From IMG/VR virus record IMGVR_UViG_2660237930_000004: a stretch of DNA of 18,569 nt, one strand, 5' to 3'. The translations under genes and the position numbers were made by a program. Of this stretch, positions 1 through 9,331 are shown piece by piece. Within the stretch, counting starts at the first letter, position 1; the number at the start of each line of letters is the position of its first letter. Source of the DNA: a virus. Lineage: Duplodnaviria; Heunggongvirae; Uroviricota; Caudoviricetes. The notes beneath the pieces are model-generated. The model made no database searches. It was not told the origin of the DNA and saw nothing but the letters and a program-made list of their open reading frames with translations.

Positions 1-351
1 CACAACATCCGAGGGCAGCATCGTCCGCTGGCCCACAGAAGTCCGGAAAGTCATGGAAGGTCGTTGTTGGGAGGAGGTACAAATTCTCTCATGCAAAAAA
101 TACGTAAAATCGATAATAGCTGGAAATAATTCAATACATGCACTCTCGAAAGTGCATCAGCCAACCGCAGAACGTTATTGCATACAACGTTTCTGCGGCA
201 TAATCCCAATGATTACTCCCTGACAGGGTTCGTAGGCCACTCAATATCAGGTGCAGTTGATGTATCAACACGGTTCAGCAGCATCCGATACTTTTTCCAG
301 GCTTCCAGCAACGGGGTTTCTTCCTCCGTTGCATATACAGCTCACCTTTTT

Positions 352-651
352 TCACCCACGATTAACCAACAGCCAGACCAGCAGACACGCCACCACCGGC
401 ACAGCAAAATCCATCAGGCTTGCCACATCCCATGCACGTGTATCAAAACCGCCCCACCACGGCATATTCATTCGCTTGCCATGCCCGAACATTTCGATCC
501 AGCGATATTCTGCCTGGGTGTGTTCACGCGCAATGAAGAACGTACAACCGGCTATCGCCCCGTAAGCCCAGTTCCCGGTAAAAAGACCAATCAGTAGCTG
601 CGCAGCCACAGCACAAAGCGCATGAAGGAAAGGTGTTATATCCATTTTCAT
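352..651 (-). CDS. Small hypothetical membrane protein (about 97-99 aa, 2-3 predicted hydrophobic helices); possible accessory (moron) gene
   Basis: ORF 352..660 (track start is TTG); in-frame ATGs at 651 and 645, the latter with AGGA about 6 nt upstream. Hydrophobic stretches FLHALCAVAAQLLIGLF and VASLMDFAVPVVACLLVWLLV. The overlapping plus-strand ORF 178..597 has no protein-like features. Start uncertain; family not recognised. Confidence 0.45.
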   Translation of the reverse strand: MKMDITPFLHALCAVAAQLLIGLFTGNWAYGAIAGCTFFIAREHTQAEYRWIEMFGHGKRMNMPWWGGFDTRAWDVASLMDFAVPVVACLLVWLLVNRG

Positions 652-660
652 CCTACCCAA

Positions 661-681
661 TAAAACGGGGCGCTCGGCCCC
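661..681 (-). terminator. Putative intrinsic terminator-like hairpin after the 346-aa gene
   Basis: Minus strand reads GGGGC-CGAGC-GCCCC followed by GTTTTA (5-bp GC stem, short T-rich tail), directly after the stop at 688..690. Confidence 0.35.
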
Positions 682-687
682 TTAATA

Positions 688-1728
688 TTATTTAGACGCA
701 AGCGCCGCCTCAATTGCAGATAATCTTTGTCTTAATTCTGCGTTTTCTTCTTCCAGTGCTGTTATTCTGTCGTCTGACTCTCTGGCTACCTGAACAAGCA
801 AGCCAGTAACACCAGAATAATCTACTGTGTAATAACGTTCACCTTCTTCACCTTCCGATCCGCTCGCACCGTCCTGATATTTCATTGCGGAACCTACAAC
901 TTCTGGGATTGCTTCCAGAGCTTCCTGTGCAATGACACCAGCATAGGGCATACCGTTTTCTTTAAGCGTGTATGTATAGCCGTTCATTTTACGGATGCGG
1001 TCGGTTGCATTATCGATCACCTGAATGTTGTCTTTCAGATCCCGGTCGGAATGCTGGTTAAATGCGGTGGCATGACATGCACCATTAACGCTTAACATAT
1101 AGGTGTTATCGGTATTTTTCTGCGCATAGAACATATAAGCGCCACCATCAACACCGACTTCATAAACAACAGGACGGCTGGAGTTGCCCCACAATTGAGC
1201 AGTAACACCAGCATAAGCGGTTCCCTGTGTGTTTAATGTCATGGTTGACCCATGATTGGCATATTTGATCTGTAATGTGTCGGTGTAATCAAATTTAATA
1301 AGCGCGTTACTTCCACGCTTGCTGTATGACATAAGGCAGTTACCCATTTTGAGGTATCCGCTGTCACCGGGAAAAATCATCGTACCGCCATAAAGGTTGG
1401 TAAAGTCCCAGCAAATGTTTGTCCCGTTATCGTTCAGGTTAAGGCGCGCCATTGCGTTACCTGGACTGTCTATCCATTTTTTGAGGTATAGTTCGCAATA
1501 CGCATCCTCAACACCTGCCGTCCTGTGAGTTGAGCGGAGTTTTCTCCCAAATATAGCTCCGCTAGTTGGCAATACCTGCTGATACCATGAAGCAGACCAG
1601 TCACCAACGATTTCATCTTTGCTGTCTACATATAATTTTGTTGCGTAGCTTCCTTGATCGTTTTTTAATTTGCTAACGTCGGATTTTAGCGTTTTGATGT
1701 CATCAGGAATTACTGTCGATGTAGCCAT
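688..1728 (-). CDS. Tail-fibre/tailspike-like protein (346 aa) with C-terminal intramolecular chaperone (peptidase S74-like) domain
   Basis: GAGGA RBS 5 nt upstream of ATG. C-terminal about 110 aa carries ...NQH-SDRDLKDNI...GYTY... then a heptad-rich coiled coil (RITALEEENAELRQRLSAIEAALASK), matching the Ser/Lys autocleavage signature of phage fibre chaperone domains. The N-terminal about 237 aa looks beta-rich. More AT-rich than the tail backbone. Confidence 0.6.
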   Translation of the reverse strand: MATSTVIPDDIKTLKSDVSKLKNDQGSYATKLYVDSKDEIVGDWSASWYQQVLPTSGAIFGRKLRSTHRTAGVEDAYCELYLKKWIDSPGNAMARLNLNDNGTNICWDFTNLYGGTMIFPGDSGYLKMGNCLMSYSKRGSNALIKFDYTDTLQIKYANHGSTMTLNTQGTAYAGVTAQLWGNSSRPVVYEVGVDGGAYMFYAQKNTDNTYMLSVNGACHATAFNQHSDRDLKDNIQVIDNATDRIRKMNGYTYTLKENGMPYAGVIAQEALEAIPEVVGSAMKYQDGASGSEGEEGERYYTVDYSGVTGLLVQVARESDDRITALEEENAELRQRLSAIEAALASK

Positions 1729-1737
1729 TTTTCTTCC

Positions 1738-2019
1738 TCACATCCAGCCACGAAGTTGATGCTCAACAGCAACCACGTATTCATCGAATAATGACGATAT
1801 TTGCGAATCATTAATGATGCGCACGTTTACAAAATATCCGTCTTCCTTAACACATACCGGTTCGCCATCTTCAGTCAGTTCTCCGGTTTCTTTGTACACG
1901 TTACCTATCACGTCGATAAGAATATCATCCTGCATCGACTCGTCATCATAATAGCCAATACTCTCCATAAAGGCCGAAAAGTCGGCCCTGTCTTCAAATT
2001 TGAGTGTTAAATCTTTCAT
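1738..2019 (-). CDS. Small acidic hypothetical protein (93 aa)
   Basis: ORF start overlaps the stf stop (TAATG, translational coupling); its TGA stop overlaps the RBS of the 346-aa gene. Strongly acidic (D/E-rich). No family recognised. Confidence 0.5.
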   Translation of the reverse strand: MKDLTLKFEDRADFSAFMESIGYYDDESMQDDILIDVIGNVYKETGELTEDGEPVCVKEDGYFVNVRIINDSQISSLFDEYVVAVEHQLRGWM

Positions 2020-4418
2020 TAGATTGACTCCCCCATTTGTGCCTCAGTTAATTCTTTATGCCAAATGCGTAAATTTTTCACATGACCGAACAGGTGTCTG
2101 TTGCCACTGGATGATTGTCCACCGATATTAATATTACCGGCAGTATAACGTTGCAATGTATGCAGAGACGGGGAGCTGCCACCTAAAATTCCATCAACAA
2201 CAACCTGCAACTGTTTATCTTCTGTAAACTTAAAGCCAGTAACAAATTTCCTTTTCTCTCTATTCCCATATGCTTTATATTCTGTTTTTGTTCCTTTGCC
2301 ATTGGTGATAATTAGCCTTTTACCACGAGTGGTAAAACCAAAATACATATAACTTTCATCAGAAACTTCAGTCGTCGCCCCTGTAATTGAGATATTAAGC
2401 AAACGCGCAGAGCCTTCTAAATTAGGCATTTCAGAATCCCAATTAACATTAACTTCCATGAGAACACTAACTGGTGGAGTTGCCCAATTGAAAGGTATAG
2501 GTATGATTACCTGGTCACTTGCTCTCGTGGCACCGACCTCTGTTGTGATGATAAAAGATGACGCGTTTAGTCCCTTTTCGAATTGAGGGGTTGTTAACAT
2601 TAATTTATCGCCAGACTTGATTGATCGTTGATGTGCTCCAAACTCAAAACGCCCATACATATTTTTTGCTTCTGGTGATTTGTAGGTAAACTCAACACGA
2701 ATCCATCCATTAGACTCTCTGAATATGTTATAAGTTGCCGCCTCACCTCCAGAATAACTCAACATATCGCCAGTCTCGCAATCAATATATGCGCCAGCGG
2801 TCAGTGTGTTACTTGAGCCATCGTCGTTAACATATGATATTCTTGGACGCAACGTGATAATACCATCCCCACTTACTTTTTTAACTCTGCAGGATAAAGT
2901 AACTGATTCATTTGCCGAAACTGAAATAACCCTGGTATATCCAGTAGAAATTAATGTCGCCCTTTCAGTTGTGGATGTTTCTTTAACGCCAAACAAACCA
3001 TAACTGAAACCATACTCATCAACTCCCGTGGTAATAGTTAAGTTAGCAGTGTCATAGTTCCACGATACTGGTGTATTCGTATAAGAAAAAGTATTCGTTC
3101 TCTGACCTTCAATGAGCAGACCATCTTTTTCAAAACGTGGTTCATTTATCGCTGATTCAGCAAAACACCCAGACTTATCTATATACGTTGCAGTTGACGC
3201 CCTGGTAAATGAAACAACCTTTTCAGACGGCAATGCAATAACATCGTCACCAACTGTGATGCTCTTATATCCAGGAGCAAACCCGGTAATCATATCCAGT
3301 GAATCGTTAAACGGTATCCACACCTCAGGTAACGGCTGTAAGACATATTTATACGGCTCCGCAGCCTGGCTTGCGTACTCTCTGGCTGCATCTTCGCTTG
3401 CTTTAGCTGCCGTCTGGCTTGCTGCCGATGCTTTCGCTGAGTTCGCAGCCGCTGTTTCGCTCGCCTTTGCGTTGGTTTCACTGGTTTTTGCTGCTTTTTG
3501 ACTGTTAGCTGATGCAGTGGCAGAAGCAGCCGCCGCACTTGCAGAACCAGCTGCAGCACTCTCGCTTTCAGCTGCTGCAGCCTGACTACTTTTCGCCGCA
3601 GTTTCACTGGCTTTGGCATTCGTTTCGCTGGTCTTCGCTGCTGTCTGGCTGGACTTTGCGTTAGTTTCACTCGTCTTCGCAGCTTTCTGGCTGTTAGCCG
3701 CAGCAGTTGCTGATCCGGCTGCTGAAGTCGCAGAACCGGCCGCCGCACTCTCGCTGTCAGCTGCTGCATCCTGACTGCTTTTCGCCGCAGTTTCACTGGC
3801 TCTGGCATTCGTTTCGCTGGTTTTCGCTGCCGTCTGGCTGGACTTCGCGTTGGTTTCGCTCGTCTTTGCGGCTGTCTCACTGTTTTTCGCGTTGGTTTCT
3901 GATTTTTTGGCTGCAGTCGCGGAGTTTGCCGATGCAGTCTGTGAGGCCGCTGCCGCCTGTGCGCTGTTAGCTGCGTTCGTTTCTGAGGTTTTCGCCGCGT
4001 TCTTCGATGATGCCGCTGCTGTTTCGGATTTCTTTGCCGCCGCTGCGCTCTGAGAGGCGGCTTCAGCGTTGCGTGCCGCTTCTTCCACCATTTCCTCAAA
4101 ACGACGCAATGCCTCCGGCATGACATCATCTTCCGTCATGGCACCGAGAAAATCATTCAGCGTCCCCGGCTTAGAATCTTCATACACGGTGATGGTCCCG
4201 GCATGTGAAGGCGGAAAACCTTCAACCAGCAGGATAACGCTGTACTGGCCATACTCAACATCCATGCTGTAACGCCCGGCTTCATCCGGATTTTCAGAGG
4301 CCACCGTGTTCACCAGTACCGTGGTGCTGTTACGCTTTGCCTTCAGTTGAATAGTGCAGTTCTGTATTGGTTTTCCCGCACCATCTTTCAGCACACCTGA
4401 GATTTTTACTGCTGCCAT
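2019..4418 (-). CDS. stf: Side tail fibre protein: lambda Stf-like N-terminus, Ala/Ser/Thr-rich repeat shaft, non-lambda C-terminal domain with LamG/ConA-like lectin signature
   Basis: N-terminus MAAVKISGVLKDGAGKPIQNCTIQLKAKRNSTT... matches lambda Stf from memory. Likely start is ATG at 4416..4418 (GGAG RBS) rather than the GTG at 4424 used by the track. C-terminus ends ...GNRHLFGHVKNLRIWHKELTEAQM, typical of LamG_3/ConA-like jelly-roll domains. Sequence below about 3300 is visibly more AT-rich. Confidence 0.8.
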   Translation of the reverse strand: MAAVKISGVLKDGAGKPIQNCTIQLKAKRNSTTVLVNTVASENPDEAGRYSMDVEYGQYSVILLVEGFPPSHAGTITVYEDSKPGTLNDFLGAMTEDDVMPEALRRFEEMVEEAARNAEAASQSAAAAKKSETAAASSKNAAKTSETNAANSAQAAAASQTASANSATAAKKSETNAKNSETAAKTSETNAKSSQTAAKTSETNARASETAAKSSQDAAADSESAAAGSATSAAGSATAAANSQKAAKTSETNAKSSQTAAKTSETNAKASETAAKSSQAAAAESESAAAGSASAAAASATASANSQKAAKTSETNAKASETAAANSAKASAASQTAAKASEDAAREYASQAAEPYKYVLQPLPEVWIPFNDSLDMITGFAPGYKSITVGDDVIALPSEKVVSFTRASTATYIDKSGCFAESAINEPRFEKDGLLIEGQRTNTFSYTNTPVSWNYDTANLTITTGVDEYGFSYGLFGVKETSTTERATLISTGYTRVISVSANESVTLSCRVKKVSGDGIITLRPRISYVNDDGSSNTLTAGAYIDCETGDMLSYSGGEAATYNIFRESNGWIRVEFTYKSPEAKNMYGRFEFGAHQRSIKSGDKLMLTTPQFEKGLNASSFIITTEVGATRASDQVIIPIPFNWATPPVSVLMEVNVNWDSEMPNLEGSARLLNISITGATTEVSDESYMYFGFTTRGKRLIITNGKGTKTEYKAYGNREKRKFVTGFKFTEDKQLQVVVDGILGGSSPSLHTLQRYTAGNINIGGQSSSGNRHLFGHVKNLRIWHKELTEAQMGESI
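3430..3970 (-). repeat. Tandem repeats of about 189 bp (63 aa) within stf, with nested KTSETNA-type 21-bp sub-repeats
   Basis: Protein segment KAAKTSETNAKSSQTAAKTSETNA[RK]ASETAAKSSQ...SESAAAGSA...NSQ occurs twice in tandem plus partial copies. At DNA level ctgactactt/ttcgccgcag at 3582..3600 recurs at 3771..3790 (offset 189). Boundaries approximate. Confidence 0.7.
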
Positions 4419-4429
4419 ATCCACTCCAC

Positions 4430-4482: not shown

Positions 4483-5082
4483 TCAGAACTTATAACCGAC
4501 ACCCACGATGAAACCGTCAGTGCGCCAGTCACCACTGCCGGAGCCTTCATAAGCAATATCAATGGCCACGGATTCGGTCGGGTTAAACTGCACGCCAGCT
4601 CCCCACGCCAGAGACGTGTTGCTGTGGCGACCGTCATCACTTCCGGTCAGCACATCGTGCGTTTTCCCCTTGTTGTCAGTTACGCGGAGGTAATCCCCGG
4701 AAAAAGTCGAAACACGGCTGTAAGCCATACCCGCCATCGCATACGCGCTGAACCATTCATTCACGCGCACAGACGGCCCCGCCATCACGCTGAACCAGCG
4801 GTTACGCACGGAATCTTTATGCCAGCGGGTATCGCTGTAACGGGTCAGCTGACGATTCTTGTATCCTGCATAACTGAATGACGTCACCAGCCCCAGCGTG
4901 TCCGTAAATTCATAACGGTATTTCACGTTAATGCCCTTCAGGTCATCACTGCCTGGCATATCAGTATGGGTCTGAAGATACCCGGCGCTTAGTGTGGACT
5001 GATGCTCTGCTGCGCTCGCTGGCGTACCAGCGGCAACCAGCCAGACTACTGCGGACAGAATAACAGCACATAATTTACGCAT
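4483..5082 (-). CDS. lom: Lom outer-membrane protein (Ail/Lom/OmpX family beta-barrel), 199 aa
   Basis: Signal peptide MRKLCAVILSAVVWLVAAGTPASA; body recognised as lambda Lom from memory; C-terminal aromatic residue (…GVGYKF) typical of OM beta-barrels; GAGAGG RBS. Confidence 0.9.
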   Translation of the reverse strand: MRKLCAVILSAVVWLVAAGTPASAAEHQSTLSAGYLQTHTDMPGSDDLKGINVKYRYEFTDTLGLVTSFSYAGYKNRQLTRYSDTRWHKDSVRNRWFSVMAGPSVRVNEWFSAYAMAGMAYSRVSTFSGDYLRVTDNKGKTHDVLTGSDDGRHSNTSLAWGAGVQFNPTESVAIDIAYEGSGSGDWRTDGFIVGVGYKF

Positions 5083-5130: not shown

Positions 5131-6044
5131 CGTATTGGGGTTATAAAATTCAGCTGATACTGATGCCTGCAGTGGCTTTCTTCATCACAACAACCAGCAA
5201 ATCGCTGATACTTGCTGTGGGATACCAACCATTTACCCACCATGCTGATACAGAAAACTCCAGTGTCATTACACCACTGCCTGCAGGCATATCAATAACA
5301 CCCGTGTAAATCAGAGTATTATCCAGAGCCGTTCGGTTATAAATTTCAGCCCCGTTTTTCTTCACTATCAGGCGGCATGACGAATAAGTATCGCTATTCT
5401 CCCGCTCATGTCTGGCACCGCAGAAAGCCACCGCTGGAATAACAATTTGCCGGTCAAACGACTGATCGTCATAAACCCTGACGGTAATAGTCCCTGATGG
5501 CCACCGCTCCGGTGCACGGGAGTCCCGGGGGAAAGCTTTGCCCACTGTTTTAACGAGATCGCCTTCAATCTGGTTCGCGGACAGTTTTCCCAGAACCCGA
5601 CAGTTCTCGTTAATCGTGACATTATTGAGCGTCCCGGAGTTCGCATTCACGTTACCGCTGATATCGGCATTTTTCGCCGTCAGCCGCCCGTCCGGTGTCA
5701 GGGAAAATACCGGAGGATTGCCGCCACTGGTAATGGTGGGAGCCGTCAGATACTTCAGGAACACTTCGTTCATGAATATCTGGTTGCCCTGCGCCACAAA
5801 CATCGGCGTTTCATTCCCGTTTGCCGGGTCAATAAACGCGATACGGTTAGCGGCAACCAGGAACTGGCTCAGTTTGCCTTCCTCCGTATCCTCCATACTA
5901 AGGCCAAGCCCCGCGACATAATGCCTGCCGTCTTCGGTCTGCTCAATTTTGACGCCCCACATGGCATTCCATTTATCGTTGGCGTCCTTCCACTCTTTCG
6001 AAAACTCCTCCAGTTTGCTGGCGTTATCCTCCGTCAGCTCGACT

Positions 6045-6121
6045 TTTTCCAGCAGCTCCTTGCCGAGATGGGACTTTTTCGCCAGCAGCTCCTTTTCCAG
6101 CAGCTCCTTGCCGAGATGGGA
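6045..6121. repeat. 29-bp exact direct repeat with 48-bp period inside J (in-frame repeated [10 protein letters not shown] peptide)
   Basis: Positions 6045..6073 and 6093..6121 are identical; protein reads [35 protein letters not shown]. Confidence 0.7.
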
Positions 6122-6245
6122 TTCGGTTATCTGGCCTTTGAAAAAATCCAGGTAACCTTCCGCATCATCGCTCGGCTGACCAACAGCCTCCACGAATGCC
6201 GATTTGCCAACGGTGTTCACACTGCGGATATAAAAGTAATAATCA

Positions 6246-8624
<2,379 letters not shown>

Positions 8625-8681
8625 TCACGCTCCAGAAACGACAAAACCGCCCTGAGGCGGTTTCACACAAAACATTCTGCA

Positions 8682-9331
8682 TCAACGACCAATCACCACA
8701 ACCTGACCACCATCTCCTTCATCTGCCGTGCTGATCTCCTGCGAAATCACCCGTGACCCCACGCGCATTTCACCGTACAGAACCGGCAGAACATTGCCCT
8801 GGGCAACCATGTTATCCAGTGAGGAGAAATAGGTGTTCTGTTTGCCGTTATCCGTTGTCTGTGTACGGGGAGTTCTGGCTTTCGGTGCCAGCATCTGCGC
8901 CACACCACCGAGCACCATACTGGCCCCCGCACCATACATTCCTGTAATTGCGGCAGCCCCCAACCAACCTGCAGGGTTCCACCATGCCACCGCAATCAGC
9001 GCCGCCCCCAGCACAGCCGAGAAAAAGCACCGCCACTTTTGGCTCCCGCCAGACGCGGCACAATGTGGATCACGGCACCATTTGCCAGCGGTTCATTAAG
9101 ACGGGCTGATAATTCAGTTTCACCTGCATCACGCCCGGCAATACGTACCTGATACCAGCCGTCGCTCAGTTTCTGACGAAACGCCGGAAGCTGTGTGGTC
9201 AGCGCCCGGACTGCTTCGGCCCCCGTTTTCACACGCAGGTCGATGCGGCGGCCAAATCGTTGTAAATCCCCGTAAAGGCAGATTCGCGCCATGCCCGGTG
9301 ACGCCAGAGGGAGTGTGTGCGTTGCTGCCAT
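8682..9331 (-). pseudogene. I: Tail tip assembly protein I, interrupted by a frameshift (true pseudogene or homopolymer sequencing error)
   Basis: ORF 8996..9331 encodes the I N-terminus (MAATHTLPLASPGMARICLYGD...) and stops at ...SGGAFSRLCWGRR*. ORF 8682..9014 in the -1 frame encodes the I C-terminus (...LGGVAQMLAPKARTPRTQTTDNGKQNTYFSSLDNMVAQGNVLPVLYGEMRVGSRV...VVIGR). Frame switch maps to about 9004..9030, containing an A5 run (plus strand 9022..9026). Confidence 0.8.

Follow-up and report, generated by a model that had tools for sequence, protein, structure and literature searches.

A small gene for a predicted inner-membrane protein behind the receptor-binding genes of a phage-21-like prophage and of other phages

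The inner-membrane proteins SieA of phage P22, gp15 of HK97 and Imm of T4 block the entry of phage DNA, and the outer-membrane lipoproteins Cor (phi80, N15, HK022) and Llp (T5) are receptor-blocking, FhuA-specific and encoded beside receptor-binding genes. Here we describe a small gene that resembles both groups in part. It lies on the minus strand of a stretch of 18,569 nucleotides (nt), called the window below, from a Caudoviricetes virus (IMG/VR record IMGVR_UViG_2660237930_000004), which is a phage-21-like lambdoid prophage of Escherichia coli at icd. The gene belongs to the family PHROG 1443, whose members come last in receptor-binding cassettes of at least five phage architectures. Its protein would be a late-made, self-sufficient factor of the inner membrane that acts at the envelope, and blocking of phage entry is the role we favour, tentatively.

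SieA has been shown to block the transfer of DNA across the inner membrane and is expressed from the prophage. The gene of HK97 gp15 lies in the tail gene region, is annotated as encoding a moron product and is followed by a terminator. Like SieA, HK97 gp15 and Imm, the protein described here is a small phage protein, predicted to lie in the inner membrane and to act alone, and its gene, like that of HK97 gp15, is found inside the tail region. Unlike the genes of HK97 gp15 and SieA, it has no promoter and no downstream terminator that a scan could detect, and it is coupled to late genes. A BLASTP comparison of the small protein with HK97 gp15 returned no alignment, and no PHROG or PADLOC family is common to it and to SieA, HK97 gp15 or Imm.

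The likeness to Cor and Llp is one of size and place, as in both cases a small envelope protein is encoded next to a fibre or receptor-binding gene. The small protein differs from them in being polytopic and predicted to reside in the inner membrane, and it does not co-vary with the type of fibre. A lipoprotein of the Cor/Llp type was considered and rejected: the N-terminus, MDITPFLHALC, is without the L-[AS]-[GA]-C box, and C11 sits inside helix 1 and is not conserved, position 11 being Ile in 45% of the family members.

A conserved gene and its predicted membrane protein

The open reading frame (ORF) spans 352..660 of the minus strand, and gives 102 amino acids (aa) from TTG, 99 aa from ATG 651 and 97 aa from ATG 645. 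The earlier note on this DNA had described 352-651, which is the 99-aa version (protein MKMD...). ATG 645 is more likely the true start, because of the spacing of a TAGGA motif, because RefSeq (WP_000355602.1, 97 aa) and the annotators of phage 21 use it, and because D2 is invariant in close relatives while the N-terminal extensions differ. In the other junction types described below, AGGAGG stands at the place of TAGGA. The two features are:

352..645, minus strand: coding sequence (97 aa, predicted membrane protein) with its stop codon at 352-354, defined from the ORF list, PHROG 1443, codon-position bias and AlphaFold2.
651..655, minus strand: Shine-Dalgarno-like TAGGA, 5 nt upstream of ATG 645, read from the sequence.

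The gene is genuine, strongly conserved and under purifying selection. Among 40 distinct close alleles, substitutions gather at codon position 3 of the minus frame, and the phage 21 allele differs from that of the window at 3, 1 and 10 sites of codon positions 1, 2 and 3, respectively. The ratio of nonsynonymous to synonymous polymorphism (pN/pS) is summarised as about 0.1-0.2, with a range of 0.05-0.3, for close alleles and is about 0.35-0.4 at 60% DNA identity. Two plus-strand ORFs, 178-597 and 251-565, were considered as the real gene, a possibility that the earlier note had named as one that would overturn its reading; they are rejected because the differences pile on the third position of the minus frame, with low pN/pS. 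Hundreds of clusters preserve the protein, at identities as low as about 30%, so the existence of a small protein gene, as that note had claimed, is borne out by codon-position bias, pN/pS and conserved homologues alike.

The same note could not assign the protein to a family. This can now be done by a full-length match of a hidden Markov model (HMM): residues 3-98 of the 99-aa form align with positions 1-96 of the 97 of PHROG 1443, a family of unknown function, at E 3e-58 and 195 bits. The sole other PHROG match, PHROG 34165, is likewise of unknown function. Pfam, NCBIfam and PADLOC gave no match to the small protein, the PDB gave none, and no informative fold match was obtained. A tblastn search of 50,697 phage records returned only family members, labelled hypothetical or unannotated.

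Relatives number 453 in a single-sequence search and 2,452 in a profile search, and an exhaustive HMMER scan yields 427 clusters at 50% identity. All are stand-alone proteins of about 90-140 aa and are named hypothetical wherever the source gives a name, a label that every database shares. The hosts are essentially only Proteobacteria, among them Escherichia, Salmonella, Leclercia, Aeromonas, Comamonas, Sphingomonas and Halomonas. At megablast level, about a third of complete E. coli genomes carry the gene (1,900 of 5,426), the median being 2 copies per genome and the maximum 7, and in 57 places it lies on plasmids; phages of very different build carry it as well. It is thus a common, already catalogued and uncharacterised phage gene.

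The protein is predicted to be an integral membrane protein of three helices. Hydropathy marks hydrophobic stretches at about 4-38 and about 74-96, and an AlphaFold2 model built on a 24-sequence alignment places helices at 4-23, 26-52 and 74-96, with a mean predicted local distance difference test (pLDDT) score of 90 and a predicted template modelling (pTM) score of 0.72. The agreement of hydropathy with this three-helix bundle supports the earlier description of a membrane protein with two to three hydrophobic helices. The annotators of phage 21 also obtained transmembrane segments from TMHMM, as two transmembrane domains with both termini inside. A crude sum on the Hessa scale is marginal for the helices, at +2 to +4 kcal/mol.

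Conservation was computed across 97 diverse members. R40, E41, W72 and P83 are invariant, H8, Q44, A45 and E46 are at least 96% conserved, D79 reaches 90%, and R48 and R58 reach 88% each; the core motif of the family reads GRE[HVI][AT]QAEYRWIE..G.G.RANMPWWGGFD.R.W. Every conserved residue sits in the loop 44-73 or at the helix ends that adjoin it, and the conserved positions therefore form one site at one face of the membrane. The loop averages 4.4 lysine plus arginine residues (K+R), as against 0.11 in the turn between helices 1 and 2, and the C-terminal tail averages 4.6 residues with 0.66 K+R. The conservation of H8 and Q16 argues against helix 1 being a signal peptide that is cleaved off and discarded.

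Receptor-binding cassettes and their trailing gene

The distal tail operon of the window runs on the minus strand in the order J, lom (4483-5082), Stf, a 93-aa gene, a 346-aa S74 fibre and the small ORF, and a sitABCD operon ends just left of position 1. The neighbours of the small gene are:

2019..4424, minus strand: 801-aa side tail fibre (Stf), with a prophage tail fibre N-terminal domain (PF08400, E 1.6e-68) and Ala/Ser/Thr-rich repeats.
1738..2019, minus strand: 93-aa acidic protein of PHROG 1361, function unknown, part of the fibre cassette.
688..1728, minus strand: 346-aa short tail fibre with a C-terminal Peptidase_S74 chaperone domain (PF13884, E 4.8e-14; PHROG 4563 'tail fiber protein', E 1e-220).
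213..332, minus strand: remnant of tfa, its last 39 codons, 19 nt downstream of the small ORF and a pseudogene in the UPEC132 annotation.

The small gene begins 42 nt past the stop of the S74 fibre gene. Since a truncated tfa lies just beyond it, the small ORF closes a fibre cassette that took the place of the resident stf/tfa end, and the tfa remnant looks like a recombination scar at the right edge of what was swapped in, namely the C-terminal part of Stf, the 93-aa gene, the S74 fibre and the small gene. A 106-kb E. coli phage-plasmid, NZ_OZ369461.1 (locus L147, 1726-5285), carries the whole of this cassette as well, and the cassette therefore moves as a unit between unrelated phages.

The same company is kept elsewhere. 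In the P22-like phage JEP4, the last 4 nt of the tailspike gene are shared with the start of the small gene, and int comes next, and in the P22-like vB_EcoP-611R6 the order is tailspike, OafA, a 37-aa fibre remnant, the small gene and int. In Halomonas phage phiHAP-1, the gene overlaps tfa by 4 nt and the sheath gene lies just after it. Overlaps of 4 nt are also seen with a PF12571 fibre in an Aeromonas P2-like prophage and with the preceding tail genes in Chelativorans and Acidovorax, and in Comamonas and enterobacterial prophages the gene comes after GpJ and fibre genes. A putative Dehalococcoidia metagenome-assembled genome contig has a family member just before a pectate-lyase tailspike. 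Among 76 loci on freshwater and other environmental viral contigs, a co-directional ORF lies within 60 nt upstream in 58, and the ORF directly upstream has at least 380 aa in 51; the examples scanned are tailspikes of the pectate-lyase kind. In Comamonas nitrativorans and Pigmentiphaga (P. humi), a family member stands between a tail protein and bAvd (L033/L035, about 6785-8690), and the bAvd neighbours place it inside a diversity-generating retroelement locus, right after a likely variable receptor-binding gene.

Some of these places are known to hold cargo. The phiHAP-1 copy, between tfa and the sheath gene, occupies the slot from G to FI that in P2 is the fun(Z) locus, and the JEP4 and 611R6 copies, between tailspike and int, occupy the P22-like conversion slot. 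These slots hold unrelated cargo expressed in the lysogen; the small gene instead overlaps the preceding late gene by 4 nt.

Exceptions to the linkage exist. Intact copies in jumbo virulent Aeromonas phages adjoin a helicase/terminase gene, away from tail genes, another Aeromonas phage copy lies in an operon of small unknown genes, and alphaproteobacterial and related genomes have single copies amid housekeeping genes (ligA, pnp, CFA synthase, prmA). The virulent siphophage HC6 of Escherichia (locus L136, 3965-4120) carries an unannotated, frame-disrupted remnant of the family (...RRRANIPWWGGFDWRAWDLPSLLD) 4 nt after its 859-aa S74-type fibre, from which the small protein appears dispensable in at least one virulent phage. 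The upstream partners of the family as a whole fall into 39 unrelated clusters, and there is therefore no obligate partner.

A close tie to receptor-binding genes could mean that the protein folds, matures or attaches the receptor-binding protein, or that it is carried in the virion to the inner membrane of the recipient. The tight translational coupling to receptor-binding genes in many lineages, the travel of the gene with fibre cassettes between unrelated phages, and its position at the usual place of the fibre chaperone tfa, which is truncated in the window, all speak for such a role. It is nevertheless very unlikely. Known fibre chaperones are specific and soluble, but here a single allele serves different fibres, and family proteins that are 55-68% identical trail structurally unrelated receptor-binding proteins. 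Moreover, S74 fibres have a chaperone domain of their own, phiHAP-1 has the small gene in addition to tfa, orphan chromosomal copies have no fibre nearby, and HC6 retains its fibre while the small gene has decayed.

The identity of many of the partners raises a second possibility, in which the protein inhibits or redirects an undecaprenyl-phosphate-linked enzyme of O-antigen, capsule or lipopolysaccharide synthesis and so alters the receptor of the fibre or tailspike, either as a form of lysogenic conversion or so that progeny are not trapped on debris. Phages epsilon15 and D3 encode small membrane inhibitors of the O-antigen polymerase after their tailspike genes. The near restriction of the family to Proteobacteria would suit this idea, as would partners that are typically directed at polysaccharides (P22-like tailspikes, S74 fibres, pectate-lyase tailspikes) and the P22-like slot between tailspike and int, which in vB_EcoP-611R6 also has the OafA O-acetylase. 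We consider it quite unlikely, given that the protein is without homology to any conversion protein, that it also trails fibres of the protein-receptor type (GpJ), that the jumbo-phage copies lie away from tail genes, that the consensus scan found no promoter for expression in the lysogen, and that the positive-inside count puts the loop in the cytoplasm, off the periplasmic polymerase and ligase steps.

The freshwater contigs bring in the main rival explanation, an accessory role in lysis, in which the protein would resemble a holin or an antiholin, or form a small channel for ions or protons, and would adjust the timing of lysis together with the phage holin. On these contigs (L231, 5723-7608; L152-L229 generally), the family member overlaps by 4-13 nt either a 160-aa gene or the gene of a 55-aa 'PSTWRG' membrane protein. 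The UniRef name of the 160-aa neighbour is 'Holin of 3TMs, for gene-transfer release', and in a related phage this holin-like gene shares a cassette with a GH108 endolysin. On the freshwater contigs, genes for small transmembrane proteins and an endolysin-like gene come next, which puts the family member at the junction of the tail and lysis modules. A lysis role would also agree with three predicted transmembrane helices in about 97 aa, the size and helix count of class I holins such as lambda S, and with the invariant polar residues that lie inside the helices or at their edges. Additionally, the ATG-AAA-ATG (MKM) at 643-651 of the window recalls the S107/S105 dual start of lambda.

Several findings nonetheless make a lysis role improbable. 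Lysis and tail-fibre modules are separate in genomes of the lambda/phage 21, P22 and P2 types, and where the modules lie apart the small gene keeps its place behind the fibre or tailspike gene. The annotations show no lysis gene adjacent to it in the stretches examined from lambdoid and P22-like phages, phiHAP-1 and the phage-plasmid, and no endolysin or holin family was found among the neighbours of the Comamonas, enterobacterial and Aeromonas prophage copies. The protein also departs from class I holins in having no charged C-terminal tail and in a long invariant loop that is unusual for holins. The MKM start is present only in the hairpin junction type described below, so the dual start is not conserved and its likeness to that of lambda S is probably a coincidence. 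A match to Phage_holin_8 is weak and confined to 2 of the 97 members (E 0.0036). Membership of class I holins is therefore not supported, on the short tail and on a holin-like neighbour that occurs only in the freshwater phages, where the tail and lysis modules abut.

Probable late expression and a possible role in phage entry

The earlier note had put the gene just beyond the fibre genes of a lambdoid prophage, which proved right, and had called it a candidate moron preceded by a terminator-like hairpin, which fared less well. The hairpin was found by pattern scan:

657..681, minus strand: terminator-like hairpin GGGGC-CGAGC-GCCCC (681-667) with a GTTTTATTGG tail, at the 3' end of the S74 fibre gene.

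It lies, followed by GTTTTATT, between the stop codon of the fibre gene and the small ORF. The structure is present as claimed, and it carries little evidential weight: the stem has 5 bp, the 55-nt context folds at -17.1 kcal/mol with a z-score of -1.64, 13 of 200 shuffles fold as well, and the scan of 2.1 kb gave 4 terminator-like sites where 1.7 +/- 1.4 are expected.

A survey of 84 close E. coli-type loci shows three kinds of junction. The hairpin junction of the window occurs in 37, a gap of 10-12 nt with AGGAGG after a 234-aa variant of the S74 fibre in 39, and the phage 21 junction, directly after a 92-aa homologue of the 93-aa protein, in 8. The phage 21 gap is 12 nt and is annotated with a ribosome-binding site only. 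The hairpin is thus absent from 47 of the 84 loci, in which the small gene follows the preceding gene of the fibre module by 10-12 nt, behind AGGAGG. In every locus checked, the hairpin accompanies a 3' end of the 346-aa fibre type, and in vB_EcoP-611R6 it lies by the 37-aa fibre remnant; an identical allele of the small gene is found behind both the 346-aa and the 234-aa fibres. The hairpin belongs to the 3' end of one fibre-gene variant.

In lambdoid phages, Q-modified polymerase reads through terminators, and the hairpin junction would therefore not stop late expression. In most lineages, the tiny gaps and 4-nt overlaps indicate that the small gene is read with the preceding late gene. The junctions, the scans for promoters and terminators and the family members in virulent jumbo phages together point to a gene that is part of the late tail operon and probably co-expressed with the late tail genes, and not to an autonomous conversion unit; expression from the prophage at a low level may still occur.

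The idea of an autonomous moron, with its own promoter and expressed from the repressed prophage for conversion or exclusion, has a low probability. In its favour, the gene sits at the far end of the tail operon beside the cargo sitABCD, has the hairpin upstream in the window, shows a guanine-cytosine (GC) content of 53% as against 41-47% in the adjacent fibre genes, and occurs as single orphan copies in bacterial chromosomes. However, the GC content equals the window mean of 54%, and intact copies are carried by virulent phages. The consensus scan, which is blind to weak or non-sigma-70 promoters, found no sigma-70-like site on the minus strand over 646-1008, and the nearest promoter-like site, a 9/12 match at 1038-1009, lies within the fibre gene and upstream of the hairpin. 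No terminator-like site was found by scan in 1-351 on either strand. The gene is also not separable in the way of a moron, as it follows its neighbour by 10-12 nt with AGGAGG in 47 of the 84 loci and overlaps the preceding late gene by 4 nt in five other lineages.

With expression placed provisionally among the late genes, blocking of phage entry remains the role that we favour. The small protein would insert in the inner membrane and act alone, without a dedicated partner. The invariant polar and aromatic cluster at one face (H8, R40-E41, Q44-A45-E46, W72, D79, P83) would be its working site, and this site may alter the inner-membrane step of phage entry in the infected cell. The result could be superinfection exclusion, or self-protection during lytic growth, whichever outer receptor the fibre recognises. 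Self-sufficiency is suggested by the lone copies at ligA, pnp and CFA synthase together with the 39 unrelated partner clusters, and independence from the fibre type by the identical allele behind the 346-aa and 234-aa fibres.

A broader proposal is more doubtful. PHROG 1443 might be an unrecognised class of phage inner-membrane effector that trails receptor-binding cassettes in lambdoid, P22-like, P2-like, phage-plasmid and freshwater settings, and whose invariant intramembrane or interfacial network of His, Arg-Glu, Gln-Ala-Glu, Trp, Asp and Pro gates or blocks a conserved step at the inner membrane, either DNA entry or ion flux, independently of the receptor.

Several points weigh against an entry block. 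The protein has no homology to known exclusion proteins: neither PADLOC nor the comparison with HK97 gp15 gave a match, and fold searches returned nothing informative. The multiple copies per E. coli genome speak against a block, expressed from the prophage, on phages with the same gene; either a resident copy fails to exclude such phages, or it is silent in lysogens. The predicted face of the loop is conflicting, as the positive-inside rule puts it in the cytoplasm and the phage 21 TMHMM result puts it in the periplasm. A lysis role would agree just as well with the overlap that freshwater phages show between the family member and a holin-like gene. Finally, for NC-SV, a related icd prophage, a small RNA (sRNA) alone was enough to reproduce protection against a virulent phage.

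The consistent linkage to receptor-binding genes and the invariant site make the gene a reasonable target for study, and it is by itself not surprising. As it stands behind receptor-binding genes and moves with them in cassette swaps, it is likely carried along when host range is exchanged, by engineering or in nature. If an entry block or a tuning of lysis were true, it would bear on the design of phage therapy, on the competition of prophages in gut and urinary E. coli, and on the annotation of thousands of genomes. Even a dispensable gene would be of use in marking where fibre cassettes end on the right-hand side.

Further features of the window

The 93-aa protein of PHROG 1361 is conserved in phage 21 and in many E. 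coli prophages. Gene callers for metagenomes that translate TGA as Trp join it to the membrane protein, which yields 'proteins' of 190-194 aa, such as P0266. In Stf, tandem repeats of 189 nt and 42 nt at 3451-3899 encode the Ala/Ser/Thr-rich repeats of the 'AAKTSETNA' type.

Beyond the small gene, an Rfam sRNA-candidate model, IS009, matches 256-354 below threshold (62.8 bits against a gathering score of 117), which presumably reflects a model that covers homologous prophage sequence. An inverted repeat, CCGCAGAACGTT...AACGTTTCTGCGG, lies in the interval that separates the end of sitD from the tfa remnant, at about 166-200; it lacks a T-run and received no terminator flag.

A perfect 28-bp tandem duplication at 6269-6324 inside the tail-tip gene J (minus strand) causes a frameshift that splits J into the ORFs 5150-6220 and 6243-8621. 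The split may mean that the prophage of the window is tail-defective, or it may be an artefact of assembly. Near the duplication, at about 6045-6092, J carries a 48-nt in-frame insertion relative to UPEC132.

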